From an uncultured virus (IMG/VR IMGVR_UViG_3300013137_000012) (Duplodnaviria; Heunggongvirae; Uroviricota; Caudoviricetes), in the IMG/VR virus record IMGVR_UViG_3300013137_000012: a DNA stretch of 64,000 nt. One strand, 5' to 3'. The position numbers and the translations under genes are program-made. Each line of letters starts with the position of its first letter. Within the stretch, counting starts at the first letter, position 1. Positions 2,601 through 48,416 of the stretch are shown piece by piece. The notes under the pieces were generated by a model. That model was given only the letters and a program-made list of their open reading frames with translations, was not told the origin of the DNA and did no database searches.

Positions 2601-3232
2601 TCAAAAAGAGATAGTGTTAGATAAAAACTTTTTTGAACATTTATTGAATTGTATGGCTAATCAACGCTTTATTGCAAGTTTAAGTGAAGAAGAAAAAGAA
2701 GTAAATCAAAGTATAATTGACAAGGCATGGAATAAGGGAATGTTTATTTTGAATTTAGACGGTTGTAAAAAAAGACTGCAAGATGGGTTATTAGATAGGG
2801 CACAAGTATATTGGAATAGTCGCATAAAAGATATACAAGTATTTATTGAAGAAGAAAGTAAAGATGTGTTGGAAAATGAAAAAAGCACAATTATGTTTAA
2901 GTGGACACAATTGGTATGGCAAGAAATATGGATGTGGTGTTTGTTATGTGGAGATAAAGATTCTATAGTAGATATGGATAAATGTTCGCTTACTACGGGT
3001 CAGGTTTCTACACAAGATTTTAATGACATAGCTACCAGAAGGGGATTTAACGACAATAAAACAAAATTACTTAAAGATGCTCTGATATTTATTGGTATAG
3101 GTGAATTGTTGAAAGATGCTCCAATCAATAATATTCCTGACAGTACTATAGTTGAATATTGACTTTATATTTAATGCGTCTATAATTACTAACAGGAAAA
3201 ACAAAATGACACTCTGTAATTCTAAGTTGTAA

Positions 3233-3940
3233 ATGAAAATATATAAGATTTCTTTTAGAAACGAACTGGACATTTTAGCTAAAAATGTAGCCAAATACGT
3301 TTTTGATCAAATTGTCAAAAGTTCTAATCATAGGCAAATAATTGTGGTTTCAAACCCTGATAAAAACATAGATCTTAGTATTTGTAATTTACCAAAAATA
3401 GTATTTGAGATAACAGATCCTGCTTCGGGAAAAGTTACTATTAGCGGAACATTCTTGTTGGCATTTAAAAATCCATATCCCTACATTAGAGTAGGCATAG
3501 ACACTTTTAACTTTTCTAAAAGGGACTATGAATTTCTTTTGCAGCGACTTAAATATACTACCAGACACGAAATAGAACACGCCCTACATTACAATAAAAA
3601 TCATAAAATATCTCCTTCCTATAATATTCCTACTGAAAATCCAGGTTTATTGGGTGGTATAAATATATCGCGGCAATATTTGTTAGATGTTTCAGAAATG
3701 GATGCGTATATTAGAGATTTGATGATGGAGGCTAAGAATAAAAGAGTTCCTATAGAAAGGCTGGTTGACAATCTAATCAGGTCTAAGTTGTACGAGATAA
3801 ATCCGGATGAAGTTGCACACAATGTTGATTTAAATACGCCATTGGGACAACAAGTATTAACCATGTTTAAAGAAATAAAAGATAAATATTATAATAGAAT
3901 TGGTCAGTTGTATAACAGGAACAAAAATGAAAGAAAATAA
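3233..3940 (+). CDS. HExxH (zincin-like) protein, paralog of 39383..40132
   Basis: RHEIEH and YLLDxSExxA motifs shared with 39383 and 18611. Confidence 0.6.
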   Translation: MKIYKISFRNELDILAKNVAKYVFDQIVKSSNHRQIIVVSNPDKNIDLSICNLPKIVFEITDPASGKVTISGTFLLAFKNPYPYIRVGIDTFNFSKRDYEFLLQRLKYTTRHEIEHALHYNKNHKISPSYNIPTENPGLLGGINISRQYLLDVSEMDAYIRDLMMEAKNKRVPIERLVDNLIRSKLYEINPDEVAHNVDLNTPLGQQVLTMFKEIKDKYYNRIGQLYNRNKNERK

Positions 3941-13054: not shown

Positions 13055-13187
13055 TGCTATCTTCTTGTATAACATTGTTATACCTATAAAAAAATACAAA
13101 ATCCTTCTTGACTTTTTGATATTGGTTAGTATAATAATATGTATAATATTAGAAAGGTTGATTTTAAATTATAAGGCGGGGCAGATT

Positions 13188-21792: not shown

Positions 21793-22371
21793 ATGAAAAC
21801 CAGAATAGGCTTCGTATCTAATTCCTCCTCTTGCTCTTTTATAGTGTCTACAAAAGAGTTTCCTACAACTTGGGATTTGGCAGACTATATGATTGAAGCA
21901 CGTTATCAATATGAGAAAAATTGTTATCAAGAAGATATTTGCTATGCCAAAAGAAATCTGCCAAAAGAACCCCTATCTGACGCCCAAAAAGAATTAATAA
22001 AAGAAGATGAAAAACTACTACAAGATAATGAAGAAATATATAAAACACTAAAATCAAATCTGTCCAAAATACTCAAAGGCGATTCTAATTTAGCATTTAG
22101 ATCAGTTAATTTTGATACTTTTATTACTCAAATTGATGTAAATGGCACTAAATATTTATATGTTTCTACATGTAATAATGTTATATGGGATATACCTAAA
22201 ACTGTTCCTAATGGTCATGGAGAAACTATTCCAGAGCTTTTTAGTTTTGGGGGGTTAGACGATGGCGAATGGGACGAAGAATATATAGAAGGCAACACTT
22301 TTATTAGATTAGACGATAATAAAGAAATAAAAATAAAAGATAGATTTGATGGATTAAATCAAAAGGAATAA
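21793..22371 (+). CDS. FVSNSSS-tag protein 3
   Basis: begins MKTRIGFVSNSSSCSFIV. Confidence 0.85.
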   Translation: MKTRIGFVSNSSSCSFIVSTKEFPTTWDLADYMIEARYQYEKNCYQEDICYAKRNLPKEPLSDAQKELIKEDEKLLQDNEEIYKTLKSNLSKILKGDSNLAFRSVNFDTFITQIDVNGTKYLYVSTCNNVIWDIPKTVPNGHGETIPELFSFGGLDDGEWDEEYIEGNTFIRLDDNKEIKIKDRFDGLNQKE

Positions 22372-23694
22372 CAATGATCCTCAAAACCATATTACTAGTG
22401 CTAATATTGTGGACTGGAATTGGACCATGTATATGTATATTGCTTTCTAAATTCTCTATATTTTCTAATAAAGGAGAGCCAAAATATTTCTGGTTAATTG
22501 GTGGTCCTTCTTTTTGGGCGCTTTTTATATTGCTTAAATTATTTTCGCCTGTAAAATAAATGAATAAAAATGAGCGATAGTTCTTATAGAGAATTAACTT
22601 GTGATGATTTAAGAAATCATGACAGGATTTTAAACGGAGATAATTGGCTTGATACCCATATAGAAGAAAAATGAATCAAAAGTAGACATAAAATGAAAAA
22701 CTACCTATTCAGCGAAATCGGTTGGAGTAATAATTTTGTCGTAATGGCTTCTTCTAAATTCAAAGCCCAATACGCATTAGCAGAATTCCTTAGAAAAAAG
22801 AAATATCATGGACAAAATAACCAAATAATCCAAAACACCAGAGATATTGCTATAAATTTTGAAGTTAAAGAATTTGATAAAGAGAAAGTAATACAAATCT
22901 AATGTCACGCATATATTTTCATAGTATTAATGGCGAAAAAGAAATATGGGGCGCAGAAAGAGCCTTGGCAGGACACTATATTAATCAATTAGCACTTTCC
23001 ATATTAAACGTTAAAGAAAATTATAGTAAATTATATTCTGTATTAAATCCTGAATCATATCTAATTAATCCTAGAATTGGGCATGAAGTAGATGATATGG
23101 AAACTGCTATTAGAGTTAATTGGGGTTTTGGCAGTCCGCTTTTTATTATTGATAATAAACCAGTAAATATATGGCAAGTTTTATTGAATACTGCTATGGC
23201 TATAGGATCTGATCAAATTAGATTATTAACAAGACTTCATGCCCAATGTGAAATCTATAGTTACATTAAAGGTAAAAATAGAGAGTGGTTCGCAGACATA
23301 ATATCTGGTGGATTGGATGCCAAAATATATCGTGAACAAAGTGGTTGGAAAGAACTTATAGAATTTTTAATTTCAGACAATAAAAATACAGTAGTAACGA
23401 GTTATAGCGTGTGTACTTGTTTTCCAAACCCCTATATATTGGGTTATGGTGGCGATAATGCATGGGAAGACTTCGCTAGATTAAATAAAAAAGCTCAATG
23501 GGAAAAATGTTTGAAAGAGTTATATAAAAGCAGCGAAGGTCTAGAAATATCTCCTGAAAACTTCTATGTTCGCTTTGGAAACGAAATAAATGCTTTTGAG
23601 TTAATTAATAAGTTGTATAAAAGAACTTGACGGGAAAGTAGAACATATATAATAATGGTATTATCATGAGTAAAGAAAAACGAAAAGAACTATA

Positions 23695-23753
23695 TTCTAA
23701 CGCCCACGATGACCTTCCGGCGGTAGCCGGTAAGGTCCGGCGTGTTGTTGGAG
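23695..23753 (-). other. attC-like recombination site 1 (59 bp)
   Basis: minus strand CTCCAAC-AACAC-GCCGGACC-tt(a)ccggc-tacc-gccgg-aa-GGTCATC-GTGGGC-GTTAGAA: R''/5/L''8...L'7/6/R' geometry, hairpin with bulged base. Confidence 0.75.
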
Positions 23754-23760
23754 ATTCTGA

Positions 23761-23997
23761 ATGATTTGGAGACCGAGAGAGCAGCGAGGGGCGAGCGTCA
23801 TTAAGACGTGGCGCGGGGCAAGTGTTGGCCGAGCGTTTATCCGCTCGTACTCCCTGGCACGCCTCTGCCGCAAGGCAAGCGCAAATTGCGCCGAGGATTC
23901 CGGCTTCGCAGGCGATTGGCGGACAGTCGGCGTCGGCATCGCGCATCGTAGCGACCTGGCCTCTCTCGGTATCTCCAACGTGAAAGCTGAGGATTGA
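23761..23997 (+). CDS. cassette A ORF, hypothetical (78 aa)
   Basis: GGAG upstream, ATGA overlap with the upstream 32-aa ORF; ends inside attC2. Confidence 0.45.
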   Translation: MIWRPREQRGASVIKTWRGASVGRAFIRSYSLARLCRKASANCAEDSGFAGDWRTVGVGIAHRSDLASLGISNVKAED

Positions 23998-24046
23998 CGA
24001 ATGAAGCGAAGCGAAATAAGACATATCCTCCAGCGACTTGTTCGCT
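23973..24046 (-). other. attC-like recombination site 2 (74 bp)
   Basis: minus strand AGCGAAC-AAGTC-GCTGGAGG-at...at-CCTCAGC-TTTCAC-GTTGGAG; L''/L' pair perfectly except one extrahelical G. Confidence 0.8.
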
Positions 24047-24333
24047 GGATTTTCGGGAACGACGAGTACGCCAATGGGCAGCACATCGCGCACGAGCCGT
24101 CATGGTGGCAGATGCGCAAAGCAAAGCGTGATGCTGAGGACTGGCTGTGGAAGCAGATACCGTCAGTCATCGAGATAGACCTTACAGCGAACAGTTATAT
24201 GAGTCTTTTTTCTAACGGTGAAATAGGTTTGAGTGATGGAGTTGGCTATGTAGATACTCTTTGTGCAGACGAAGTAAAGGATTTATATGTGGCATTGAAA
24301 AATTATTATAACAAAAAAAGTAAAGAAAAATAA
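24001..24333 (+). CDS. chimeric ORF: cassette B N-terminus fused to 3' part of the interrupted phage gene
   Basis: GC-rich to 24191, AT-rich afterwards; junction at ...TAN|SYMSLF. Confidence 0.55.
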   Translation: MKRSEIRHILQRLVRWIFGNDEYANGQHIAHEPSWWQMRKAKRDAEDWLWKQIPSVIEIDLTANSYMSLFSNGEIGLSDGVGYVDTLCADEVKDLYVALKNYYNKKSKEK

Positions 24334-24612
24334 ATGAAATGGGAATGTGTATTATGTAATAAAACCCCTGATAAAGGATGGTACTATATTGCTTCTACAG
24401 ACGACAATATAGACTATTTTTATTGCGATGATTGTGTTCCTAGAGGTTGTTCATGTCGAAAAGAATTAAAAAATGATATAGATATTAATAGTAAAGAAGC
24501 TAAAGATCCAAAAAGCTATCATGATAGATTAGATGCAAGTGGTAGGAAGTTGCCTTGTGTTGAGTTTTCGTTTGTTGATAATGATTTTGAAATAAAACAA
24601 AGATTAGGATAA

Positions 24613-25992
24613 ATGGATTTAAACTTTTCAACTTTAATGGGCGGAGGAGCTATTTTTGCTACTGTTGCTTTATTATGGCAGAAAATAAAATGGGTGTGGG
24701 AGAGAATTTCTTCTATAGTTTTTGTTACTTATACCATAGAGCATTACAAAATAACTATTGCAGTAAATTTTTATTTATCTAAACATTTTTCATTATTAAA
24801 ATTTCAGCCCAGAATCATCTGTGGTGAAACTCTTTATGTCCGTCCAAGAAGAAAATATGGACTTGTTGGTTTTGAATGGAATAGAATGAAGTCTATATAT
24901 ATTTCTAAAAAGGGAGTGGTCGTTTTTGGCATGTCTTCATCTGGAAATAAAGGAGATGTCAGTAACGCACAGATAACTACCATTAGGGGCTTAATAGAAC
25001 TTAAACAACTTATAACAGATGCTATAGATGAGTATAATTCTAGTACCGATCAAGTAAAACAGAGATCCAGTAACCAAAGTACAAGATTTAAAATAATTCA
25101 GTATTGTGGACAAGGAAGAATAACGAAAAACAATAAAACTAGTGATGGCGGGTATTCAGAAGACTCTAAAGGTCCAATTGCTGTAGGCGGAAACAATGGG
25201 TGCGGCATAGATAATAGTGAATTATTAAGTGGCAAAATTGAATTTTTAAAATGGACTATAAATGATATTGGCGAAGAGGACAAACAAAATGCGGGACTTA
25301 AAAATTTAGCGTTGCCACCATATGTAGACGGGTTAATAGAAGAAGCTAATAGGTGGATGGATAGTCAGTTATGGTTTGAGGAAAAAGGTATTCCGTGGCG
25401 TAGAGGATGGCTATTACATGGAAAACCTGGAACTGGTAAAAGTTCTTTAATCAAGGCTATAGGTCAACATTTAAGAATTCCTATTTGTCTTTTTGATATT
25501 GCCTCTATGGGGAACAATGAATTTAATAAATATTGGGAAGAAATGTTAAATCACACTCCCTGTATAGCTTTGATAGAGGATATAGATGCCGTATTTTCCG
25601 GAAGAACAAATAAATTAGGTGAAATGGGTGGTGGATTAACCTTCGATTGCCTTTTAAATTGTATGTCGGGTGTTAAAAGTGCAGATGGAGTATTCTTAAT
25701 TATAACCAGTAATCATATTGAGGATATAGATGAGGCATTAGGTAAGCCAAGAACTGATAAAGATGCTAATGGAACACTTATATCTACCAGACCAGGAAGA
25801 ATTGATAGAGTATTCGCTTTGCCATTATTAGATGATAAATGCAGACTAAAAATAGCAAACAGAATACTGTGTGATTGCCCAAGTTATATAGAAAAAACAG
25901 TTAAAGACGGTGATGGAGATACTGGGGCACAATTTCAGGAACGTTGTGCTCAAATTGCATTAAGGGCATTTTGGGATAATAAATCTGTATAA
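24613..25992 (+). CDS. BCS1-like AAA+ ATPase with N-terminal membrane anchor
   Basis: GIPWRRGWLLHGKPGTGKSS, IEDIDA, LLNCMSG, ITSNH, RPGRID. Confidence 0.85.
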   Translation: MDLNFSTLMGGGAIFATVALLWQKIKWVWERISSIVFVTYTIEHYKITIAVNFYLSKHFSLLKFQPRIICGETLYVRPRRKYGLVGFEWNRMKSIYISKKGVVVFGMSSSGNKGDVSNAQITTIRGLIELKQLITDAIDEYNSSTDQVKQRSSNQSTRFKIIQYCGQGRITKNNKTSDGGYSEDSKGPIAVGGNNGCGIDNSELLSGKIEFLKWTINDIGEEDKQNAGLKNLALPPYVDGLIEEANRWMDSQLWFEEKGIPWRRGWLLHGKPGTGKSSLIKAIGQHLRIPICLFDIASMGNNEFNKYWEEMLNHTPCIALIEDIDAVFSGRTNKLGEMGGGLTFDCLLNCMSGVKSADGVFLIITSNHIEDIDEALGKPRTDKDANGTLISTRPGRIDRVFALPLLDDKCRLKIANRILCDCPSYIEKTVKDGDGDTGAQFQERCAQIALRAFWDNKSV

Positions 25993-26740
25993 TGCTACAA
26001 AGAGGTGAATATGCAAATTAAAAAAATAAAAAGCGCTATAAAAAATTCTAGAAATGCCAAAATCATTATAAGTAATGAAGATAAAAAAATGAAAAAACTT
26101 GTTAAATTAGCCCAAAAGAAAAGGCAAAAAACAATTAAGCAATATAATAAGATTAATAAGATAAAAAGAATTAAAAAGCCCAAAAAGATACAAAAACTCG
26201 TTGATATAGAGAGTCTATATAATCGCGCAGACAAAAAAACACAATTGGCTATGAGGCAATTATTAGAAAAAGAAATTGTTAGAAAAAGGTTTATAAAACG
26301 GTTATTAGAAGACGACAAAATAGTAAAAATGATTTCGTGTGCGAGTAACGACATATTTGACATAATTAAACCCAAATTAAGTAAATATATGTCAAATATT
26401 AAAAGATACTTAAGCAAAAAATACATTAATAAAAATATAGATGTTAATGTTGATTATTTGTGTATACTGAAAGTAAAGACATTGTTAGACCTAATAAACG
26501 ACAATATAGACCAATATTTGTTAAAAAGATTTGACAAGGAAAAGAAAATAAGTACTTTTGATTTATCTCATGTGTTATCTATTGATGATTGTATTCCTTC
26601 AGATAAAAAAATAGTAATGCCCGAACTATCAGATCCAAAAGATATTAGTTTTGATGATTCTATAAAAGAAGATCCAAGTTTAGATGGTTATGGCGCTGAT
26701 ATATTTGGTAAAACCGAATTATTTGACAATATAAGAAGAA

Positions 26741-27968: not shown

Positions 27969-28029
27969 TATTATATATTTCTTCAAAACAAACAAATTGC
28001 CCTTTTCAAAATCTGTATATAATATAAGT

Positions 28030-29715
28030 ATGTTCGTATTAAGACCATATAATAAAAACAAAGAAGAGTTATATAATAAAAACAATCCCCGTTTAATATC
28101 TCGTTTATTATCCCAAAGAAATATTGATAATATAGATGAATTTTTGAAGTGTGATTATGATGCATTATCAGATCCTTATACACTGAATGGAGTAAAGGAA
28201 GCCTCTAAATTATTCTGTCAAGTTATTTTAGAAAAAGGTGCAATTTCTTCTTTTGGTGATTACGATAGTGACGGTATTATTTCTTCTGTAATGATTCATG
28301 AACTTTGTAAAACATTAAAACATGATTGTACTTCATTTTTACCTTCACGATTAGAACATGGTTATGGACTAAATAAAACAGCAATTGAACACTATAAAAA
28401 AACCGTTAAAAATCCGCCAAACTTACTCGTTATTTTGGATTGTGGTTCTAATTCCGAAGAACACATATTGGAGTTGAAAAAATGGGGCGTAAAACATATC
28501 ATTATAATAGACCACCATACAATTGAAGCAAATAAGGCTACTAAATCTGCAAACGTATTAATTAATTGGCATATTGATAATAAAAGTGAAATGTGTACTT
28601 GCGGATTAGTATATCAATTTATACGTGGAATAAGGAAATTAACCAAACGAATAGATCCCATAGAATATTTAACATATGCCGCTATTGGAACTATTGCAGA
28701 TATAATGCCTATAATTGGAGATAATAGGATAATTGTTAAAAACGGGTTATTATCCAGTACATTAAATAAAGTATCTGGATCTGGATTAAACTCTATATTG
28801 TCTACGAGATTTTCAAACGGATTAAACCAGAAGAACATTGCTTATCAAGTTGTTCCAAAACTAAATGCACCTGGGAGAATACATACGCCAGATTTTGTAT
28901 TGAAATTCTTAATTGAAAGAAATTCAGACCAAACAGAAAAAATGTTAGAGCTTTTAAATAAACTGAATAAAGAAAGAAAGAGTATACAAGAACGCATAGA
29001 AAAAGAAGCGTTAAATAAGATAAATGGCAATATTGATGCGTATAAACATGGCATTTTAGTTTATGATGATAAATGGCATGTGGGAGTAGTGGGTATAGTG
29101 GCTTCTAAATTAGTAGAAAGGTTTAAGAAGCCCGTTGTAATTGCAGGACTACATGAAAAGCTATATAAAGGCAGTTCTCGTGCAAATAACGATATTAATA
29201 TATATGAGATATTAACATCATGTAAAGAACTATTCACTGAATTTGGTGGTCATAAACAGGCAGCGGGTATAATTCTAAATCCTGATAAATTAAATGATGC
29301 TAGTACAATATTTAATAATGCCTGTCAAAAATATTTAGAAAAACACAATATATGCACTGAATCAAGTCGTTTTTATGATGCAGAATTAAAAGCAAAAACA
29401 GTAAATGTAGAAACTAAAAATATGTTATTAGATACTTTATATCCTTATTGTGCATCAAATAATCCTGAACCTATATTTATGATTTCTGGAATCGTAACCG
29501 GATTAACATTAAAAGAAAAAGATGATTGGAAGAAAATGTCATTTAAAATAAAACAAAATAACGATATAACTGAATTAAATTTTGTTACTTTTTCGCCGGA
29601 ATATGGGACAGATTTAAATGGTTGTTTTGTTAAGGTTTATTTTACTTTCCCACAAAACGAATTTAACGATGTATTAGTGGAAGAAATAGTAGTAAAAAAT
29701 GGAGAAAAAATATGA
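28030..29715 (+). CDS. recJ: single-stranded DNA exonuclease RecJ
   Basis: GDYDSDG, PSRLEHGYGL, LDCG, IDHH, GTIAD, PKLNAPGR, WHVGVVGIVAS, FGGHKQAAG. Confidence 0.93.
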   Translation: MFVLRPYNKNKEELYNKNNPRLISRLLSQRNIDNIDEFLKCDYDALSDPYTLNGVKEASKLFCQVILEKGAISSFGDYDSDGIISSVMIHELCKTLKHDCTSFLPSRLEHGYGLNKTAIEHYKKTVKNPPNLLVILDCGSNSEEHILELKKWGVKHIIIIDHHTIEANKATKSANVLINWHIDNKSEMCTCGLVYQFIRGIRKLTKRIDPIEYLTYAAIGTIADIMPIIGDNRIIVKNGLLSSTLNKVSGSGLNSILSTRFSNGLNQKNIAYQVVPKLNAPGRIHTPDFVLKFLIERNSDQTEKMLELLNKLNKERKSIQERIEKEALNKINGNIDAYKHGILVYDDKWHVGVVGIVASKLVERFKKPVVIAGLHEKLYKGSSRANNDINIYEILTSCKELFTEFGGHKQAAGIILNPDKLNDASTIFNNACQKYLEKHNICTESSRFYDAELKAKTVNVETKNMLLDTLYPYCASNNPEPIFMISGIVTGLTLKEKDDWKKMSFKIKQNNDITELNFVTFSPEYGTDLNGCFVKVYFTFPQNEFNDVLVEEIVVKNGEKI

Positions 29716-29927
29716 AAGATAAATATATCACGTATTTCACCAGTACTACAATTATAGGGGTATTGGCAGAAGCAGAAAATAAAGAAGAGGCTTTAAATAT
29801 TGCTAAAACAAAATTTAATGATAAAGATAATCTTGAAAAGTTTTATTTTAATCAAACACCGATGACGCCGATCAAAACTGAAAAAGTTAATTAATTCCTG
29901 TATCATAACAAAAACATTGGAGTGAAT

Positions 29928-31997
29928 ATGGAAAAGCAATTTACTGAAGCATCTTTAATTAAGCACATAAGACAAAAGCAACAAGTATTAAAGCGTGTAT
30001 CAAAAGAACTCAAAGCACATTTTGTAGGTATAGATCATATTATAGATAAAATAATAAAAGCGGTAGAAGTCTGGTATATATTGCCTCAATTATTAACTCG
30101 TCCTTCTATTATTTGTTTATGGGGTCCAACAGGCGTAGGTAAAACAGATTTGGTTAGACGTTTTGTAAAGGCTATTAAGTTTTTTGACAGGTTTTGTGAA
30201 ATAGAATTGTCCAGTAAAGGCGCATATTCGTGGCATACAACTATTTCAAGTATTTTGTCACAAGATCACAGTATGGAATCTGGAACACAATCTATATTGC
30301 TCTTTGATGAAATACAGAACTTTAGAACACTAGATGAAACAGGCGTGGAAATAACCGATTATCATTTCAAGGATATTTGGAGTCTTTTGAGTGATGGTAA
30401 ACTTCCCTATAAGCCCGATATGGATTATTTGTTATCGATTATTTATGATGATGAAAGACGTAAAAAGCGCCAGAAAGAACGTAAGAAGACTAAGAAGATA
30501 GTAGTTCCTACAAAACAAATTGCAGAAACCTATAAATATGATTATGATGATAGCACTACACAAACTCCTCAAGTTACCGAAGTATCAATTAATAATGATA
30601 GGCTTTTAAAGGAAATTTTTAATGCCGATCCTGGTGACGATGATGAGGAAGACGATCATTCTTTTTTCTCTTCTCATTATCACAATATTAAACGTTTTAA
30701 ATCGCTTTTACGACTACCTGAATCTATAGAAGAAATTGCTAATTGGTCAGAAGATAAGAAACGAAGTGTATTACTAAACAGGTTAAACGACAAGGCACTT
30801 TATGAAGAAGAGAATTATTGTCAGTCTCTGATATTTATTTCGGGCAATTTGGACGAAGCTTATCAATTTGGAAAGCGAGCAGAAGATGTTGATACAGAGG
30901 CAGATACGTATCATGAGTGGTCTAAGAAAATAACCATTATAGACATTAAAAACGCACTAAAGTTAAGATTTAAGCCTGAACAAATAGCCAGATTTGGTAA
31001 TACGCACATGATTTATCCTTCTTTGAGCAAAAGTAGTTACGAAAAAATCATTCATCGTAAAATTGTGGAAATAGAAAAAAGAACATTTGATAATTTTGGT
31101 ATTAAGGTACACATAGACAAATCAATAGAGGCTCTTATCTATAGTAATGGTGTTTTCCCAACACAAGGTACTAGGCCCGTTTTCAGCACAATATCGGAAA
31201 TATTGGAAGCACAACTGCCTACTATTTTAATGCAATCTATGATAAAAAGAATAAGAGAAGTCGAAGTTAAATATGAGAATCAGAAAATAATTGCAGAATC
31301 TGTTAAAAACACATTGATAAACAGTATTCCTTATGACGGTACTATTGATAAATTAAGAGGGTTTAAGAATAAGAATTTGGATAGAAAAACGATGTCGGCA
31401 GTTCATGAATCAGGACATGCGGTTATTTATGCATTATTAACTGGTATTGCTCCGCCAGAATTTGTGGTTACTCCCGCAACTGATGAAGTAGAGGGATATG
31501 TTTTGTTGCATAATATCTGTGGATCTAAGGTGTCTATTTTGGACAAGATATGCGTTTCATTAGCGGGTAGCGAAGCAGAGAAAGTGGTGTTTGGTGATAA
31601 TTACTTTACTTCTGGTGGTATTAGTGATTTGAATTATGCAACAACAATGGTAGGAGAAATGGTTAGAAGTTATGGTATGGACAAGTTTTCTTCTTCTATC
31701 TTGACAGAATTTAATCAAAGAGCAAATCATTTGAATAACGATTTAAAAGACAGCAATACGCGCATAGAGAGTATTATTAAAGAACAGCGTGAAATAACCA
31801 GAAAATTATTGTTAGATAACGTCGTGCTATTCAAAAGCGTTGTAGATACTTTACTTACTTTAAATAAAATTACGCCAGATGAATTTGTTAAGTTATGTAA
31901 AAAGGCAAAATTAAGCATTAAAGTAATTGCAAATTCTACAGAAATAATTTATCCTAATTATTTGGGGATGTATAATAAATTTAAGGAATCAAAGTGA
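29928..31997 (+). CDS. AAA+ ATPase fused to FtsH-type (M41) peptidase domain, no TM
   Basis: GPTGVGKT, LLFDEIQ; AVHESGHA, LAGSEAE, GGISDL..AT. Confidence 0.8.
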   Translation: MEKQFTEASLIKHIRQKQQVLKRVSKELKAHFVGIDHIIDKIIKAVEVWYILPQLLTRPSIICLWGPTGVGKTDLVRRFVKAIKFFDRFCEIELSSKGAYSWHTTISSILSQDHSMESGTQSILLFDEIQNFRTLDETGVEITDYHFKDIWSLLSDGKLPYKPDMDYLLSIIYDDERRKKRQKERKKTKKIVVPTKQIAETYKYDYDDSTTQTPQVTEVSINNDRLLKEIFNADPGDDDEEDDHSFFSSHYHNIKRFKSLLRLPESIEEIANWSEDKKRSVLLNRLNDKALYEEENYCQSLIFISGNLDEAYQFGKRAEDVDTEADTYHEWSKKITIIDIKNALKLRFKPEQIARFGNTHMIYPSLSKSSYEKIIHRKIVEIEKRTFDNFGIKVHIDKSIEALIYSNGVFPTQGTRPVFSTISEILEAQLPTILMQSMIKRIREVEVKYENQKIIAESVKNTLINSIPYDGTIDKLRGFKNKNLDRKTMSAVHESGHAVIYALLTGIAPPEFVVTPATDEVEGYVLLHNICGSKVSILDKICVSLAGSEAEKVVFGDNYFTSGGISDLNYATTMVGEMVRSYGMDKFSSSILTEFNQRANHLNNDLKDSNTRIESIIKEQREITRKLLLDNVVLFKSVVDTLLTLNKITPDEFVKLCKKAKLSIKVIANSTEIIYPNYLGMYNKFKESK

Positions 31998-34631: not shown

Positions 34632-35252
34632 ATGAACGTTGTTGAAAGACAATTAGAGGCACAACGAATAATACAACAGTTTGCGGACACATTGGCTAAT
34701 CTTAAAATTAATAGTGACTTTTCAAACATTATAGATGTGCTTATAAATTGCAAGGGTATTATAATTGTTTCAGGAATGGGTAAGGCAGGAATAGCAATGA
34801 GGAAATTTTCTTCTATACTTTGTTCTTTGGGTTTTCCTTCTACTTATTTACATCCAGGTGAAGCTTCTCATGGTGATTTGGGATTGATAAAAAAAGAAGA
34901 TGTATTGTTTATTGCAAGTACGAGTGGTAAAACAAGAGAAATATTGGAGCTTGTAGAACTCTCAAGGCATATGAGTGTTTCAAAAATAATCGGTATTACT
35001 TCTCATATAGACAGCCTAATTAGAACAAAATGTGATTACGTTTTAGATATGGGAATAATAGAAGAGGCTGGACATTTATCATTAGCACCTACTTCAAGTA
35101 TTTTAGTTATGTTGGCATTAACCGATTCACTAGCATTAATAGCAGCAAAAGAAAAAGGATTTACCACTGAAGATTATTTGTTAAGACATCATTCTGGATA
35201 TTTAGGGGAAAAGGCGCGTGAGAATATGGCAAATAACAGGAGAGAAAAATGA
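34632..35252 (+). CDS. SIS-domain sugar-phosphate isomerase (KpsF/GutQ/KdsD-like, no CBS)
   Basis: SGMGKAG, LHPGEASHGDLG, STSGKTRE, LAPTSS, HHSGYLG. Confidence 0.85.
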   Translation: MNVVERQLEAQRIIQQFADTLANLKINSDFSNIIDVLINCKGIIIVSGMGKAGIAMRKFSSILCSLGFPSTYLHPGEASHGDLGLIKKEDVLFIASTSGKTREILELVELSRHMSVSKIIGITSHIDSLIRTKCDYVLDMGIIEEAGHLSLAPTSSILVMLALTDSLALIAAKEKGFTTEDYLLRHHSGYLGEKARENMANNRREK

Positions 35253-36142
35253 ATATTTGGACATTATTAAATAGTTTAATTAAACTTATTTTTGGCAAAC
35301 CACCAGTAACCAATACTACAACTACTACTTCTACAAAAACCGAAATACCTGCGGGGAAAACAAAAATAGCACTATGTATGGGTATAAATGATTATCCTGG
35401 AACTAACAATGATTTACAAGGTTGTGTAAATGATGCAAAAGATTGGGCAGAATTATTGACGAATTGTTACGGGTTTAAAGACTGTAAAGTGCTTTTGAAT
35501 AATGCGGTTACGAAAAATAATGTTAAAAATGCTATGGAAAAAATGTTGACTGGTTCTAAGGCTGGTGATATTATGGTTATTACTTATTCTGGTCATGGAA
35601 CCTCAGTAGTAGACTCTCAAAATGATGAAATAGATGGTAAGGATGAGGCAATTTGTTTATATGATGGACTATTATTGGATGACGAAATAAGGGCTATTTT
35701 TGATAAGTTGCCAAAAGATGTAAAATTAACCTTTATATCGGATAGTTGTTTTTCGGGAAGCGTTACAAGAAGCTTTTTAAATGCAATGAACGATTTTAGT
35801 TTCTACTCAAAGCCTAAATATATGCCTCCAAAAAATGATGACGAAGCTCTTAGATTAATGATGTTGCCAGTTCTTAAGTCATTTGCATATTCGGAAAAAG
35901 ATATGAATCACTTATTAATTAGTGGCACCGATGATAAAAGCTATAGTTATGATGCAAATATAAATGGAAAACCTGCCGGTGCTTTCTCTTATTATGCAAT
36001 CAAAATATTAAAAGAAACTCCCAAAATAACTTATAATGATTTTTATAAAAAGCTAAGAACTATTCTTCCTAATTCGTCGTATCCACAGGTGCCACAGTTA
36101 GAAGGATCGGACACAAATAAAGGCGCTATGATGTTTGAATAA
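35249..36142 (+). CDS. metacaspase / peptidase C14 family
   Basis: GINDY, LQGCVNDA, YSGHG (His), DEIDGKDE, SDSCFSG (Cys), GAFS, QVPQL. Confidence 0.92.
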   Translation: MNIWTLLNSLIKLIFGKPPVTNTTTTTSTKTEIPAGKTKIALCMGINDYPGTNNDLQGCVNDAKDWAELLTNCYGFKDCKVLLNNAVTKNNVKNAMEKMLTGSKAGDIMVITYSGHGTSVVDSQNDEIDGKDEAICLYDGLLLDDEIRAIFDKLPKDVKLTFISDSCFSGSVTRSFLNAMNDFSFYSKPKYMPPKNDDEALRLMMLPVLKSFAYSEKDMNHLLISGTDDKSYSYDANINGKPAGAFSYYAIKILKETPKITYNDFYKKLRTILPNSSYPQVPQLEGSDTNKGAMMFE

Positions 36143-36331: not shown

Positions 36332-36365
36332 GCTGGCAAAGATGGAAGAACTATCTGGAGGAACT

Positions 36366-37202
36366 ATGTACAACGATTTTAAACCCGATATAAGTTTTGA
36401 AAAATACTCAGAATATATGAAAAAGTATCCCTTATTGACCGAACAAGCTGAAAGAAGTATTGTTAATAAATTGTTTTTTGGTAATGATACTGAAAGACAA
36501 ATATCTCGTGAACAATTAATAAATCATAATTTAGGACTTGTAACTAAAGAAGCTCTTAGATACCATTATAGGTTTTCCGGTAATTATGTAGCAAAAATGG
36601 ATTTGGTTAATGCTGGTATTGTCGGTCTTATAGATGCCGTTGATGCCTTAGACCCCTCATATAAAAACAGATTTAGTACATTCGCAACCTATAGAATACA
36701 TTTTAGAATAGCTGAATATGTTCGTTTATTTATGCAACCAGTTAATTATCCCAATAATATTGTTTTAAGCCTAACAAAATATCGTAGAATCAAAGAGCAG
36801 TACGATATCAATAAATTTACGGACGAATCAATTGCGAATAAATTGGGTATCACTAAAAACGAACTATTACTATTGAAAAGACTAGATAGTACAAGATACA
36901 TATCGCTTGCTGAAAGAAATAATAGTTCTGATAGTTCTGAAAAAATCCAATTAATAGAAGATAAAACGGCTATTCAAGCTTATACACATATAGAAAACGG
37001 AGAAACAAAAGAGGTAATTGAAAAATTAATGTCAAGATTAAACGATATAGAAAAAGATATTATTAAGTCACATTTTTTAGATAATGATACTCAAACTTTA
37101 GAAGAAATAGGTAGTAGATATGGAGTATCTAAAGAACGCATAAGACAAATTGAAAACAAGGTTCTATCACTATTTAGAAAGAGAATAAAGAAGTTGTTGT
37201 AA
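36366..37202 (+). CDS. RNA polymerase sigma-70 family factor 1
   Basis: REQLINHNLGLV, DLVNAGIVGL, RFSTFA, QTLEEIGSRYGVSKERIRQIE; GGAGG RBS. Confidence 0.92.
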   Translation: MYNDFKPDISFEKYSEYMKKYPLLTEQAERSIVNKLFFGNDTERQISREQLINHNLGLVTKEALRYHYRFSGNYVAKMDLVNAGIVGLIDAVDALDPSYKNRFSTFATYRIHFRIAEYVRLFMQPVNYPNNIVLSLTKYRRIKEQYDINKFTDESIANKLGITKNELLLLKRLDSTRYISLAERNNSSDSSEKIQLIEDKTAIQAYTHIENGETKEVIEKLMSRLNDIEKDIIKSHFLDNDTQTLEEIGSRYGVSKERIRQIENKVLSLFRKRIKKLL

Positions 37203-37211
37203 GAAAGACAT

Positions 37212-38138
37212 ATGCCAAATAAATCATTAAATAAATATATTGAAAGTATTAAGAAGTATTCTCGTATAGATAGAACAAAAGAGATATCTCTGTCTAAAAT
37301 TATTCAAACCAGTCATAATACTATTGATATAAACGAAGCTATTAAGCAGTTGACCGAAGCAAATTTGTTATTGGCTTTAAAACATGCTTTTTCTTTTAAT
37401 TGGGCTATAAAAAACAGCAGACAGTTTTCAATATTAGATTTGGTTTCTGAAGCTAATATTGGGTTATATGAAGCTGCAAAACACTATGATGCTCAAAAAA
37501 ATCCGAACATTAATTTTTGTGGGTATGCTATTAAAATTATAGATAACGCGATTATTAATGCAATTCAGAAAAATGGCTTTATAAGAGTTCCAACACATCA
37601 TTTCAAATACTATTCTGAAATTAAAAAAATATTAAACGAATTTGGAGACGAGATAAAAAGTTCGTTTATTTTAAATAGACTAAAAAATCATAAAAAGAAG
37701 ATTTCTGTTAAATTTATAGATATGATTAGACAGGAAATTAAGGCTTCTATTATATCTTTGGATTCAGATCCTTTAATAATGAATTTGGCTAATATTGACT
37801 CTAGCCCATCTAAAAATATGGAAGAAATAGAACGCAAGAACGGTATAGAAAGTATTTTGAAAAATCTTAATGAAAAAGAAAAAGACATTATTATTTGTCA
37901 TTTCTATAAAAACGAAACCTTTGAAGCAATAGCAAGGAAATACGGAGTGACCAGACAGTATATCTCAATTTTAACCAAAAATGTACTTAGGAAGTTGAAA
38001 AATAAAATAAAGGGGAAAAGGGAAATAAATGAAAACAATAAACGAACAAAGTGTTTTACCAGTTTTACCAACAGAAGAAACTATAAAATCAGACAAAGCG
38101 CAAAATTCGTTCAACAACTTATTAAAAACTCATTTTGA
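37212..38138 (+). CDS. RNA polymerase sigma-70 family factor 2
   Basis: LTEANLLL, DLVSEANIGL, IRVP, region-4 HTH ETFEAIARKYGVTRQ. Confidence 0.88.
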   Translation: MPNKSLNKYIESIKKYSRIDRTKEISLSKIIQTSHNTIDINEAIKQLTEANLLLALKHAFSFNWAIKNSRQFSILDLVSEANIGLYEAAKHYDAQKNPNINFCGYAIKIIDNAIINAIQKNGFIRVPTHHFKYYSEIKKILNEFGDEIKSSFILNRLKNHKKKISVKFIDMIRQEIKASIISLDSDPLIMNLANIDSSPSKNMEEIERKNGIESILKNLNEKEKDIIICHFYKNETFEAIARKYGVTRQYISILTKNVLRKLKNKIKGKREINENNKRTKCFTSFTNRRNYKIRQSAKFVQQLIKNSF

Positions 38139-41259: not shown

Positions 41260-43161
41260 ATGAAAGACGACATACAAAAATACATCTATGACGAAAAAAC
41301 GCTTTCTTGCTATGCTAAGGAAGTGGCCGAATATCCTCGTATTACTCCGGAAAGAGAAATAGAACTGTCTAAAATAATTATTAATAAGAAACAACCAAAA
41401 AATAAAAGGGATAAAGCTAGAAATGAATTAGTTCTTGCTAATTTAAAATTAGTGTTAATGTGTGCCCGAAATTATCACAAAGATCATTTCTATCTAAACC
41501 TTTGTGATTTGATTCAATATGGTAACGTAGGGTTGATACAAGCCGCTATGCATTTTGATTGGCGTAAGGGTTTTAGGTTTTCAACATATGCTGTTACATG
41601 TATAAAAAGGAATATTGACGAAACCGTTTTTGCTGAAGATAACGAGATTAGATTCCCTGATAATTACAATGAATACATAAAGAAGATTAATGCGTTGGAA
41701 GGCGATTATGGTCCTAATTTGCCCTTTCATTTCTTAAGCGAAAAGATCGGTGTAAGTATAAATGTAGTTAAACAAGCTTTAAAAATAAGACAATATAAGA
41801 TGTTATATTTAAATGCTACGATTAGTGGTGAAGATAATTCGGTTGATTTTAATAATGTCATAGAAGATACTAGTTCGCCAGATCCATTAATGTTACTTGA
41901 AGATAAACAAACTAAAGACCGTGTAATTGATATAATTGAAAAAATGCCACGTCAGGATCAGGTAGTTGCTTTTAAGAGATTATTTGGGGATATAAAAGAT
42001 CAACATAGTCTTCAATATATTGCCGACGAGTTTGATCTTACAAAAGAATCTGTTAGGTTAAAGGAAATTAAAGCTTTCAATACTATTAAAAAGGAATTAA
42101 AAATAGAAAATAATAATGAGGACTTGCGAAATATGGGCAAGTATAGAAGTCTAAATCCGTGGACAGAAAAAAACAGAAGCAGACGTATTAAAAGAGATAT
42201 TAAAAAGGGGTTGTTGCCATTGCCGTATTTGTCTTTTCCCGAATTATCTGATATCTCTGATAAAATAAGGGCTAAAATTACAAAAAATATTCCGATGAGA
42301 CTATCGGAAATGATTAAGTCACTAAAGAAAATATCTTCCACTGAATTAGGTTATAGACTTACAAAAGTAGTGCAAAACGATTCAAGAATAGATGTGTTTT
42401 TACCAAAAGAGTTTTATCATGCACTTAAAGCAAAAAAGTGGATCGCTGTTTTTAATAAAGAAGATGACGATTTTCTATTATTTAATGTTTTTCGCGGTAA
42501 TAAATGGCTGGCGAAAAACATGTATTGCAAACCTAAACACATAACTTGTCGTTTACGAAAACTAAATATCAGTTCAAATTATAAAGGTTATACACCGAAA
42601 GAAATAGAGTTTTTGATTAAATATAAGGATGCTGAATGGAGCTTTTTGACATCATCTCTACATAGAACAGTAGATAGTATGAAAAATAAACTTGTAAGAT
42701 TGAATATTACTAGAAAATATGTTCGTAAATATGAGACTCCAAAAGAAATTGAGATAATAAAAAATAATCCAAATAGAACCTGTTCGGATTTTGTAAAAAT
42801 GTTCGGGTGGAAAAGAAGTAAGGTAAAATATCATGTTAGAAAAAACAATATTAAACTCGCTGTTGTATGTGTACAAAAAAAATATAATTCGGAAGAAGAT
42901 AGTTTTATAAAAGAAAACTATTTAAAACAAACGTGTAAATGGGTTGCTAATAAATTAAATCGTACTGTTGCCTCTATTAGTAAAAGAATGGCGATATTGA
43001 ATTGCAAGAAGGTTATAAATCATCAATATACCACAAAAGAACTTGAATTTATTCGCAATAACACAGATAAGGGTTATGTTAATATGGCTAAAATATTAAA
43101 TATAAAGCCTAAAACGCTACATAGAAAATTAAGAAGGATGAAAATTCCATGCCGTCCATAA
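41260..43161 (+). CDS. sigma-70 family factor 3 with long C-terminal HTH/Myb-like repeat extension
   Basis: ARNELVLANLKLV, DLIQYGNVGLIQA, FDWRKGFRFSTYA, region 4; then repeats Y(T/N)xxExxF(I/L)...L.RT..S. Confidence 0.88.
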   Translation: MKDDIQKYIYDEKTLSCYAKEVAEYPRITPEREIELSKIIINKKQPKNKRDKARNELVLANLKLVLMCARNYHKDHFYLNLCDLIQYGNVGLIQAAMHFDWRKGFRFSTYAVTCIKRNIDETVFAEDNEIRFPDNYNEYIKKINALEGDYGPNLPFHFLSEKIGVSINVVKQALKIRQYKMLYLNATISGEDNSVDFNNVIEDTSSPDPLMLLEDKQTKDRVIDIIEKMPRQDQVVAFKRLFGDIKDQHSLQYIADEFDLTKESVRLKEIKAFNTIKKELKIENNNEDLRNMGKYRSLNPWTEKNRSRRIKRDIKKGLLPLPYLSFPELSDISDKIRAKITKNIPMRLSEMIKSLKKISSTELGYRLTKVVQNDSRIDVFLPKEFYHALKAKKWIAVFNKEDDDFLLFNVFRGNKWLAKNMYCKPKHITCRLRKLNISSNYKGYTPKEIEFLIKYKDAEWSFLTSSLHRTVDSMKNKLVRLNITRKYVRKYETPKEIEIIKNNPNRTCSDFVKMFGWKRSKVKYHVRKNNIKLAVVCVQKKYNSEEDSFIKENYLKQTCKWVANKLNRTVASISKRMAILNCKKVINHQYTTKELEFIRNNTDKGYVNMAKILNIKPKTLHRKLRRMKIPCRP

Positions 43162-47393: not shown

Positions 47394-48416
47394 ATGAACG
47401 AAGAAAAAACACCAGAAGCTAAACCGGAAGTAGCACCAGAAGTTAAACCCGTAACGCCCGAAGTAAAGCCAGTCGCTCAACCTGAAACCACAAATATTCC
47501 TGTAAAGCGTGGTAGGGGGCGACCACGAAAAAATCCAATTGTTACACCTCAACCCGATATGCCTAAGCGAAAGCGCGGAAGACCTAAGAAAATAGTAGAA
47601 ACTCCGCCTGTTTCTGTGCCCACTGAAACACCTAAAAAGCGTGGACGCCCACGAAAGAATCCAATCGATCCTATGCCTGTAGAAACTCCCAAAAAAAAGC
47701 GTGGAAGACCTAAGAAGAATGTAGAAACTCCAAAGAAGCGTGGACGCCCACGAAAGAATCCTATTGATCCTGCTCCAAAACGTAAAATAGGGCGACCAAG
47801 GAAAGATAAGGGTCGTATTAATCCATCCACTGAAACACCTAAAAAGCGTGGACGCCCACGAAAAAACCCAATTGATGAAGCTCCAATAGTAAAACGTGGT
47901 AGGGGGCGACCAAGGAAGAATCCCGTAGATGGAGTAAAAAAACACGCACGTAGGGGAAGACCTCCAAAGAATTTAGCTGCTTCTTCTGGACCAAAAAAGA
48001 TATTGGTAATTAAAAAGCGTAGAATCGCGGATGGCAAAGAAGTAATTCTGAGCAAAGAAACTAAAATTATTTATGATGCTAATACTCCTGTGCCTCAAGA
48101 AAATAGAACCGTGAAAGATCAAAAGTTTGCCGGATATTGCAGTAATTGTGGGTTGCCTATTGCCCAAGAAGAAATTCAGGACGGATTTTTCCTTTGTAAG
48201 AAATGTGGAAATACTGGAAAATCTACAAAACTAGTTGAAAAACCAGACATGGCAAAGAATTTTACAAAAAAAGACTTTGATATTTCCAAAAAAGATGAAA
48301 ACGATATGGGTAGTGGGGATACAGAAAAAGAAACAGATCGTGATGAAACGGAAGAACAAGATTTGATAGATGACGATGATGATTTGGAGGAAAACAATGG
48401 CGAAGAACAAAATTAA
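47394..48416 (+). CDS. multi-AT-hook DNA-binding protein with Zn ribbon and acidic tail
   Basis: nine GRP cores (mostly KRGRP(R/K)K), CSNC/CKKC, Asp/Glu-rich C-terminus. Confidence 0.8.
   Translation: MNEEKTPEAKPEVAPEVKPVTPEVKPVAQPETTNIPVKRGRGRPRKNPIVTPQPDMPKRKRGRPKKIVETPPVSVPTETPKKRGRPRKNPIDPMPVETPKKKRGRPKKNVETPKKRGRPRKNPIDPAPKRKIGRPRKDKGRINPSTETPKKRGRPRKNPIDEAPIVKRGRGRPRKNPVDGVKKHARRGRPPKNLAASSGPKKILVIKKRRIADGKEVILSKETKIIYDANTPVPQENRTVKDQKFAGYCSNCGLPIAQEEIQDGFFLCKKCGNTGKSTKLVEKPDMAKNFTKKDFDISKKDENDMGSGDTEKETDRDETEEQDLIDDDDDLEENNGEEQN
47496..47972 (+). repeat. imperfect coding tandem repeats (AT-hook units)
   Basis: recurrent aagcgtggacgcccacgaaa and ccactgaaacacctaaaaagc units. Confidence 0.8.

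Follow-up and report, generated by a model that had tools for sequence, protein, structure and literature searches.

Two integron-type cassettes probably inserted within a small gene of an uncultured AT-rich phage

The DNA analysed here, referred to as the window, is a stretch of 64,000 nucleotides of the uncultured Caudoviricetes virus recorded in IMG/VR as IMGVR_UViG_3300013137_000012. At positions 23702–24192 it carries a 491-bp GC-rich island which is probably composed of two integron-type cassettes, read on the minus strand and inserted into a small phage gene by a reaction of the attC x attG type, that is, between a cassette recombination site (attC) and a secondary genomic target (attG). 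The insertion is precise, the island follows the syntax of a cassette array, models of attC match both of its sites on one strand, its parts occur as separate modules, and arrays of the same kind are found in other contigs. The recombination would be the work of an integron integrase (IntI), the donor would be an integron or a set of clustered attC sites with no integrase (CALIN) in a GC-richer genome, and a single insertion event would account for both cassettes.

The whole window is AT-rich (30.8% GC), and the island reaches 58.5% GC against 30.8% and 31.6% in its 1-kb flanks, its exact register being free within the AAC common to both junctions. Among 300-nt bins only 23701–24000 exceeds 0.5 GC (0.617), while in 100-nt windows the GC fraction rises from 0.24 at 23600–23699 to 0.58–0.67 over 23700–23999, stays at 0.50 or above as far as 24199, and is again 0.27 at 24250–24349. 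The only other GC-richer bins of the window (0.45–0.46 GC, AT skew about 0.42) are at 47394–48416 on the plus strand, where they coincide with an AT-hook open reading frame (ORF), and this is a compositional oddity of one gene and not a second island. The gene into which the island is set has the following features:

23627–23656, plus strand: sigma-70-like promoter match TTGACG-18-AATAAT, a consensus match only, 10 nt upstream of the interrupted gene (two such matches are found in the region, against 1.6 expected).
23666–23701, plus strand: 5' fragment of the interrupted phage gene, 12 codons (MSKEKRKELYSN), aligning with residues 1–12 of its homologues (P0006, P0017).
23699–23701 and 24190–24192, minus strand: target triplet GTT (AAC on the plus strand), present at both junctions.
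24001–24333, plus strand: chimeric ORF of 110 codons, in which codons 1–64 of a cassette protein run in frame into the last 46 phage codons.
24193–24333, plus strand: 3' fragment of the interrupted phage gene, 46 codons and the stop.

Excision of the 491 bp at the common AAC yields a 58-aa ORF in which the 12 codons at 23666–23701 are followed in frame by the 46 codons at 24193–24330. In the alignment with nine uninterrupted homologues the two fragments adjoin at ...YSN↓SYM... without gap or overlap (for example, P0017 reads ...KTIYSN↓DYFSIF and P0006 reads MEKKEKKSLWEN↓SYLVLF), and because they meet exactly the phage gene is truly split, with neither gain nor loss of codons on insertion. The same division is visible in the phmmer search of the 110-aa ORF (24001–24330) against 1.84 billion representative proteins at E <= 1e-3. 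It gave 43 matches, 34 of them to the phage part only (query residues about 54–109; 26 of these 34 proteins are 47–73 aa long) and 8 to the island part only, with one repetitive protein of 582 aa left aside. One homologue of the 58-aa phage protein, P0016, is fused to a DUF7736 domain (184 aa), and this is the only hint of functional context for the split gene. The preliminary description of this DNA, made from its letters, had given GC counts of 38/60 in 23821–23880 and 16/60 in 23581–23640, which are exact, and had predicted the in-frame rejoining, which the homologues bear out. It had also expected relatives with an empty site: the nine homologues fetched and aligned are indeed uninterrupted across the junction, but no empty site was found at the DNA level, the 23-nt empty-site word being absent from viral contigs (0 matches). 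Neither blastn against INPHARED nor a search of viral contigs with two neighbouring proteins gave close phage relatives, and therefore the empty allele is known from homologous proteins only.

On the minus strand the island reads as an integron cassette array with the following parts:

23979–24191, minus strand: cassette A, 213 bp, 53% GC, its own attC together with a small ORF body encoded on the opposite (plus) strand.
23701–23978, minus strand: cassette B, 278 bp, 62.6% GC, an ORF-less 232-bp body with paired ends followed by a hairpin attC.
23973–24046, minus strand: attC of cassette A (site A), 74 bp, with R'' AGCGAAC (24046–24040) and R' GTTGGAG.
23695–23753, minus strand: attC of cassette B (site B), a 59-bp imperfect hairpin recognised by attC models, by its fold, and by compensatory stem changes.

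Cassette A starts with TTCGCTG and cassette B with TTGGAGAT, and each is opened by the reverse complement of its own R'', over 8 bp in A and 9 bp in B. The four words concerned, GTTGGAGAT at 23747, ATCTCCAAC at 23971, CAGCGAAC at 24185, and GTTCGCTG at 24040, occur once each in the 64 kb; the words and the two pairings had been noticed in the preliminary description and hold exactly. Such complementarity between the start of a cassette and its own R'' is read as the mark left by a past circular form.

Cassette B ends with R'' ATCTCCAAC (23755–23747), a 45-nt imperfect hairpin, and G↓TTAGAA, where the arrow marks the crossover point. On the minus strand of site B the boxes are R'' CTCCAAC (23753–23747) and R' GTTAGAA (23701–23695), and since the last six letters of R' (TTAGAA) are phage DNA the outer site, with R' GTTAGAA, is now a hybrid. 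On the plus strand this phage-derived hybrid R' is TTCTAAC and R'' is GTTGGAG, with the AAC/GTT pair present, a bulged T and an extra C in the 3' arm, and spacers of 6 and 5 nt; a perfect 9-bp pair is restored when the hybrid R' is replaced by the own start of cassette B. In site A, R'' CAGCGAAC (24047–24040) and L'' GCTGGAGGAT are separated by a 5-nt spacer, L'' and L' ATCCTCAGC by a 30-nt loop, and L' and G↓TT by a 6-nt spacer. Here L'', with one extra base, pairs with L' (on the plus strand GCTGAGGAT with ATCCTC[C]AGC, spacers again of 6 and 5 nt), and the own ends of the cassette form an 8-bp pairing. All the sites share one layout on the plus strand: an RYYYAAC-like box, a 6-nt spacer, L', a loop, L'' with an extra base, a 5-nt spacer, and a GTT box. 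This layout, with the extra base at a distance of 3 nt from the L'' end, was recognised by visual comparison with experimentally validated bottom strands, such as that of aadA7, given in Table S3 of Qi et al. From this layout the plus strand is taken as the bottom (recombining) strand and the minus strand as the top one, in agreement with the preliminary description. In Nivina et al. (2016) the bottom-strand R' 5'-RYYYAAC-3' is given as complementary to R'' 5'-GTTRRRY-3', and the choice of the attC strand is described as set by extrahelical bases, the spacer, and the terminal structure.

In cassette B the two ends of the body pair into a long stem (folds of 23745–23982 gave z -2.6 and -3.1). 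A coding role for it was considered and rejected: its longest plus-strand ORF (78 aa) shares with the counterpart in locus L001 (69 aa) only the first few residues, and as no ORF is conserved the body is taken as non-coding. Likewise, a self-splicing intron of group I or II or another known RNA found no support in an Rfam search of 23000–25000, which gave four matches at chance level (E 1.4–9.6), far below the gathering scores.

For recognition of attC sites, covariance models were built as stand-ins from true attC sites only, none of them from the hairpin family to which site B belongs. The training sites came from class 1 integrons on plasmids (L018, L020, L021) and from three phages named in Qi et al.: Tetrasphaera phage TJE1 with its CALIN (L016), Shewanella phage M16-3 with its integron (L017), and a Vibrio phage with an integron (L015), the last being added in the second model. 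The first model (R1) held 10 sites of 50–78 nt with the canonical structure imposed, two misaligned rows of the MAFFT alignment (She_a and She_b) having been dropped from 12, and the second (R2) held 16 sites. As controls, R1 gave 13–47 bits to held-out true sites (aadA2/cmlA, dfrA12, blaOXA-1, blaIMP, and Vibrio-type) and about 75 bits to class 1 sites on the correct strand against 20 bits on the wrong one, while the near-symmetric TJE1 site 1 reached 24.8 bits on the wrong strand.

With the filters of Infernal off, and with E-values that are approximate owing to short calibration of both models, R1 gave, in the region 22000–26000, a full-length match of 28.6 bits (E 2.5e-5) to 23695–23753 of the minus strand and a match of 11.4 bits (E 0.28) to 23977–24042 of the minus strand. 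Over both strands of the 64 kb R2 placed 23695–23753 first (30.2 bits, E 1.3e-4) and 23977–24042 third (15.8 bits, E 0.3), 224 bp from the first and on the same strand, and the plus strand gave no match to the attC models at E <= 10. The claim of two minus-strand attC sites thus stands in full for site B, which is the top match at the very coordinates proposed, and is only tentative for site A. The latter is supported by its position, its strand, and its relatives and not by its own score; by a rough estimate from the E-value, a match of such strength so near the top match, on the same strand and at a cassette border, would be met about once per thousand windows. The DNA of site B folds with z -3.65 on the minus strand, where 0 of 200 shuffles were as good (the folds gave z -3.65 and -4.22), and its 30 bits compare with 52–78 bits for class 1 sites.

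Two candidate readings were rejected. The second-ranked R2 match, 13067–13083 (15.9 bits), is a bare 17-nt palindrome without stem or loop. It is a perfect palindrome of two inverted R-box-like heptamers of the type GTATAAC A/T GTTATAC, resembles the inverted GTTRRRY pair described in Qi et al. as bordering the TJE1 CALIN, and could be a secondary site. The reverse assignment of strands, with the plus strand as attC top strand because genes run that way, is contradicted by the models, which match the minus strand only, by co-resident canonical sites lying on the same strand as the hairpin in L004, L007, and L011, and by the insertion junctions, which fit only the polarity with minus as top.

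The small ORF of cassette A belongs to a protein family of 57–115 aa with a conserved GxH[IV]AHEPSxWQR motif. Its start codon at 24001 and its ribosome-binding site, with GAGGA ahead of the start, lie inside site A, and it has no own stop inside the cassette and crosses the AA↓C border into the next sequence, hence the variable C-termini of its homologues. The island part has eight stand-alone homologues, the best being P0001 (78% identity, E 7.5e-30); no Pfam family covers the protein, its Atlas neighbours (best 0.75) give no useful lead, and no member of the ORF family was confirmed in genomes taken one per species. A relative in L014 is flanked by model matches at 2918–3015 and 3156–3246 on the opposite strand (22.7 and 23.4 bits), an arrangement as in the window, and in L014 the place homologous to site A scores 22.7 bits with R2. 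The hairpin of site B has one open frame on the coding strand, which adds the near-identical tail N-A-x-x-DLPAVAGKVRRxVG to upstream ORFs, and its other two frames meet TGA, TAG, or TAA. Since ORFs read across the border, such tails are seen in L001 (3544–3879 and 4087–4716) and in the window at 23666–23764, where the 5' fragment of the phage gene runs into the island and stops at 23764 after 32 aa.

The hairpin is not confined to this phage and recurs in GC-rich contigs of viral and metagenome origin. A 26-nt degenerate word from it was found in two viral contigs (L001 and L002) and nine metagenome contigs (L003–L013), the L001 sequence being repeated in L005/L006 and L009/L010. The homology covers one 53-bp unit at every locus, 23699–23751, from AAC to GTTGG, the stem differences are compensatory (CCCCCGC/GCGGG and CCCACGC/GCGTG), and the copies carry GCCCAAC, GTCCAAC, or GGCCAAC with GTTGGGA, GTTGGGC, or GTTGGGT. 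In these related loci R2 with filters off reported 25 sites at E <= 0.5, all on a single strand within each locus, and they are distributed as follows:

L004: 5 sites (in 1.9 kb).
L012: 4 sites.
L011 and L007: 3 sites each.
L001, L002, L008, and L014: 2 sites each.
L003 and L013: 1 site each.

Hairpin-type copies make up 10 of the 25 sites (20.9–35.9 bits), and three weaker ones were not reported by R2 (L001 3814–3866, L007 893–937, and L011 1559–1623). The other sites are unrelated attC types, some near class 1, such as L011 1288–1347 (37.2 bits) and L004 1507–1562 (38.9 bits). L012 is a textbook gene-then-attC array, all on one strand, in which each gene is trailed by a site within 18 nt: the META-domain gene ends at 685 with a site at 702, the DUF2961 gene ends at 2107 with a site at 2125, and a hairpin-type site lies between the two at 949–1006. 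Other contexts are phage-like, including L002 with Mu-like genes (MuB-like, DUF3164, Mu F, Mu I protease, and tail S), L001 with crAss001_48-like, RdgC, and DUF5131 genes, and L007 with DnaB. In L008 a C-5 and an N6/N4 DNA methyltransferase stand between and beside the hairpins, and L003 has another N6/N4 methyltransferase.

The pairing of the cassette ends is also retained elsewhere with changed letters. In the viral contig L014, GTTGTCTG lies close to the start of the homologous small ORF and CAGACAAC at the end, the cassette-B-like module of L001 is bounded by GTTGGAGG...CCTCCAAC, and the next L001 module by GTTGTGC...GCACAAC. The 232-bp body of cassette B (23748 to 23979 or 23980) recurs at about 95–98% identity with other flanks in X3 (subsurface metagenome) and X6 (rhizosphere metagenome); its homology stops at 23979 and 23980, where the border had been predicted between 23978 and 23979, and the X3 copy keeps about two-thirds of the hairpin. 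Units bounded by G↓TT are therefore present in several contexts, the exception being X6, whose body comes without a hairpin. Searches for a cassette B word in viral contigs gave 0 matches, the island had no match in the plasmid records searched, and INPHARED held no relatives of it. As a separate observation, L004 370–1151 and L013 228–612 share one cassette, in which a hairpin attC is followed by a coiled-coil-like ORF of 102–107 aa beginning MTKDKLKQ; it is found twice in L004 (721 bp apart) and once in L013 with different upstream sequence each time, reflecting either cassette duplication or repeated capture.

The proposed course of the insertion can be written out to the base. The two cassettes would have reached the phage genome together, as a single circle carrying both, or, less likely, in two separate steps. 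A secondary site in the phage gene, in double-stranded form, would have been the partner of the folded bottom strand of the hairpin attC (plus strand of the window), the crossover falling behind the G of GTTAGAA on the minus strand (G↓TT), and the intermediate would have been resolved by replication. The R' of the hairpin attC in the circle would be G↓TTCGCTG, provided by the start of cassette A, and the phage target word on the minus strand would be ...AACTG↓TTAGAA..., so that the expected products are ...AACTG↓TTCGCTG-A-attC(A)-G↓TTGGAGAT-B-hairpin-GGGCG↓TTAGAA.... The junction sequences equal these products of an attC x attG reaction. This type of reaction is that of integron integrases, and the enzyme may have been supplied in trans by the infected host. 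The rejoined gene contains 8 GTT and 11 GWT words on its two strands, and therefore such targets are plentiful. As a result the phage gene is split, with its 5' end turned into a 32-aa peptide and its 3' end fused in frame behind the small protein of the cassette.

In Loot et al. study (bioRxiv 10.1101/2022.09.11.507474) IntI is reported to insert attC-bearing DNA at 5'-GWT-3' genome sites (attG) at frequencies near those of att sites, with disruption of genes and possible expression from nearby promoters, which agrees with the use of secondary sites assumed in the preliminary description. The phage locus resembles these described insertions in its double-stranded 5'-GWT-3' target (here GTT), in the G↓TT crossover, in the disruption of a gene, in having no integrase or attI nearby, and in an inserted ORF expressible from local signals. 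The cases described by Loot et al. are laboratory bacterial chromosomes and single-attC (SALIN) elements in RefSeq, whereas here an uncultivated AT-rich phage carries two cassettes from a natural event, with the empty allele represented by homologues only. In Qi et al. study (2023, Front Microbiol, PMC9892861) attC sites of virulent phages are reported to be recombined by IntI1. The phage CALINs described there are similar in having at least two attC sites in a phage without intI, DNA methyltransferase genes (in L003 and L008 among the arrays related to ours), and inverted GTTRRRY-like border words. That screen, as described, used IntegronFinder and HattCI on isolated phages and gave arrays between genes, with genes and attC mostly co-oriented; unlike them, the present insertion lies within a gene, both its junctions can be read to the base, and its cassette genes are on the attC bottom strand. 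Comparison with classical attC sites from mobile integrons (such as those of aadA7 and aadA2) shows the same R'/R'' pair through AAC/GTT, unpaired 6-nt and 5-nt spacers, an extra base in L'' at 3 nt from its end, a variable terminal loop, and a length of 59–74 bp; the differences are that the extra base is C and not G in both window sites and that the R boxes fit RYYYAAC/GTTRRRY in part. A complete integron, with intI, attI, and the cassette promoter (Pc) beside the array, is not present, and in customary terminology the element is a CALIN with two sites.

The authenticity of the island, which the preliminary description had asked to be checked against an assembly chimera, was evaluated with sequencing run X1 (possible source sample), which holds 99% of the sampled words of 23300–24600. 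The Logan contigs of X1 are a separate assembly of the likely source reads and hence a second assembly and not a second sample. One of 6,097 nt covers 23300–23739, reaching 38 nt into the island, and another of 23,928 nt covers 23722–24600 with the hairpin, both cassettes, and the right phage flank, so that both junctions are crossed, with 31 nt or more to either side. Contig ends fall within the hairpin since its core is repeated in X1: other GC-rich contigs run into and out of a 42-nt unitig (23710–23751), and 23722–23739 with long flanks is not covered by any one Logan contig. A chimera in which the repeated hairpin linked GC-rich DNA of another organism to the phage contig could exploit precisely this repeat node; the depths nevertheless agree along the phage path (11.7 with 12.5) and differ from those of the other path (3.3 with 4.4), and the flanks are halves of one conserved gene which meet to the codon, as is not expected of a chimera. 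This explanation is regarded as extremely improbable. In a further run, X2, the left phage flank is present as far as 23703 only and the right side is absent. The comparison of runs covered four of the 24 that were listed.

The reading of the island as integron-type cassettes draws support from the precise junctions, the array syntax, and the occurrence of the modules elsewhere, all in line with the preliminary description, with the action of IntI being the presumed part. A number of observations weigh against it. No integron integrase was found in the window, as had been stated before: 48 ORFs, including all of at least 250 aa and the neighbours of the island, gave no Phage_integrase match, and no tyrosine recombinase was found in 55 ORFs of the related loci or in three viral records 27–43% complete. 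The hairpin word had 0 matches in 185,579 species genomes (one each), and therefore no donor integron is known. With the default filters of Infernal R1 reported neither site in the window. The score of site A alone is non-significant (E 0.3), its fold is unexceptional (z about -1.1, with 32 and 26 of 200 shuffles as good), and its R'', GTTCGCT on the bottom strand, departs from GTTRRRY. In X6 the sequence ...CCAA flanking 23748 is followed by a different GC-rich sequence with no hairpin attC, an arrangement not predicted by a fixed unit of body plus attC. Finally, the attC bottom strand is the one that carries the homology-supported genes in the window and in L002, L003, L008, and L014, the order on the coding strand being attC, ribosome-binding site, and gene. 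The usual cassette arrangement, a gene co-oriented with the attC top strand and then followed by attC, is not seen in the window and is canonical in L012, where the hairpin type also serves it; such co-orientation is usual for cassettes and not obligatory.

One alternative is that attC-shaped intergenic stem-loops bordering small accessory genes are exchanged as a phage-specific module system without integron integrase, through a phage recombinase, homologous recombination between hairpins, or microhomology (AAC) joining. Most contexts are phage-like (L002, L001, and L007), the missing integrase, the absence from species genomes, and the inverted gene polarity agree with it, and the hairpin lies directly 3' of genes like a terminator, a simple scan calling a terminator-like site at 23726–23741. 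Promoter-stem-loop (PeSL) cassettes of T4-type phages, reportedly small accessory genes bounded by repeated stem-loops and exchanged as modules through homologous recombination between the repeats, offer a parallel; they are not known to have the AAC/GTT crossover or the complementarity of a cassette to its own end observed in the phage locus. Yet models trained on true attC sites give the hairpin family 21–36 bits with strong strand asymmetry, and the crossover is at G↓TT. Moreover, the pairing of own start and own R'' with its compensatory changes fits circularised cassettes and would not arise by homologous exchange, L012 is a classical array with non-phage genes, and unrelated attC types share arrays with the hairpin in L004 and L011. 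On this balance a phage-specific exchange is considered unlikely.

A hairpin-guided single-strand transposon, that is, a non-autonomous IS200/IS605-type element similar to palindrome-associated transposable elements (PATE-like), mobilised by a Y1 HUH transposase and inserted 3' of an AAC word, would explain the subterminal imperfect hairpin at the left end, the AAC preceding both junctions, and the lack of a long target duplication. The window also contains a TnpB-type gene of the IS200/IS605 family, a 424-aa ORF at 62402–63676 (plus strand) with OrfB_IS605 and Cas12f1-like TNB domains. Against such a transposon, the right end has no hairpin near it and codes for a conserved protein, the island is a mosaic of modules which occur separately, no part of it has a second copy in the window, no TnpA was found among the window ORFs tested, and the internal site and nested inverted repeats would have no role. 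It is thus very improbable, and integron-type cassettes inserted by an attC x attG reaction remain the preferred reading.

Elsewhere in the window, three sigma-70-like proteins are encoded close together on the plus strand (36342–37202, 37212–38138, and 41260–43161), near a caspase-like C14 peptidase (35249–36142) and an FtsH-like AAA+M41 protein (29922–31997). A DHH/RecJ-like protein (27997–29715) and a GMP reductase/IMPDH-family gene (710–1759) are also present, and this gene set suggests a large phage genome.

Phage CALINs and attG insertion have both been published, and the present locus joins the two. It offers a natural event readable to the base, with the target triplet, both junctions, a hybrid outer site, and the intact gene in relatives, and a cargo far GC-richer than the phage. 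If the cassette reading is right, the sequence itself is direct evidence that foreign genes can be placed in phage genomes by integron-type recombination, even in the middle of a gene, with the creation of a fusion protein. The locus also defines a hairpin family absent from the species genomes and from the phage and plasmid records searched; with its inverted gene polarity, this attC family seems to live mainly in phage contigs. A further, rather doubtful possibility is that hairpin-type sites mark a pool of cassettes circulating mainly among phages and moved through integrase-bearing hosts or by an unrecognised recombinase. The units of such a pool would be small accessory genes, including anti-restriction methyltransferases, with attC upstream on the coding strand and with their own start signals, so that no integron promoter would be needed, and they would pass across base composition, from Mu-like phages of about 60% GC to a large lake phage of 31% GC. 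Were this true, integron-type recombination would be a general driver of phage mosaicism and not an occasional contaminant.

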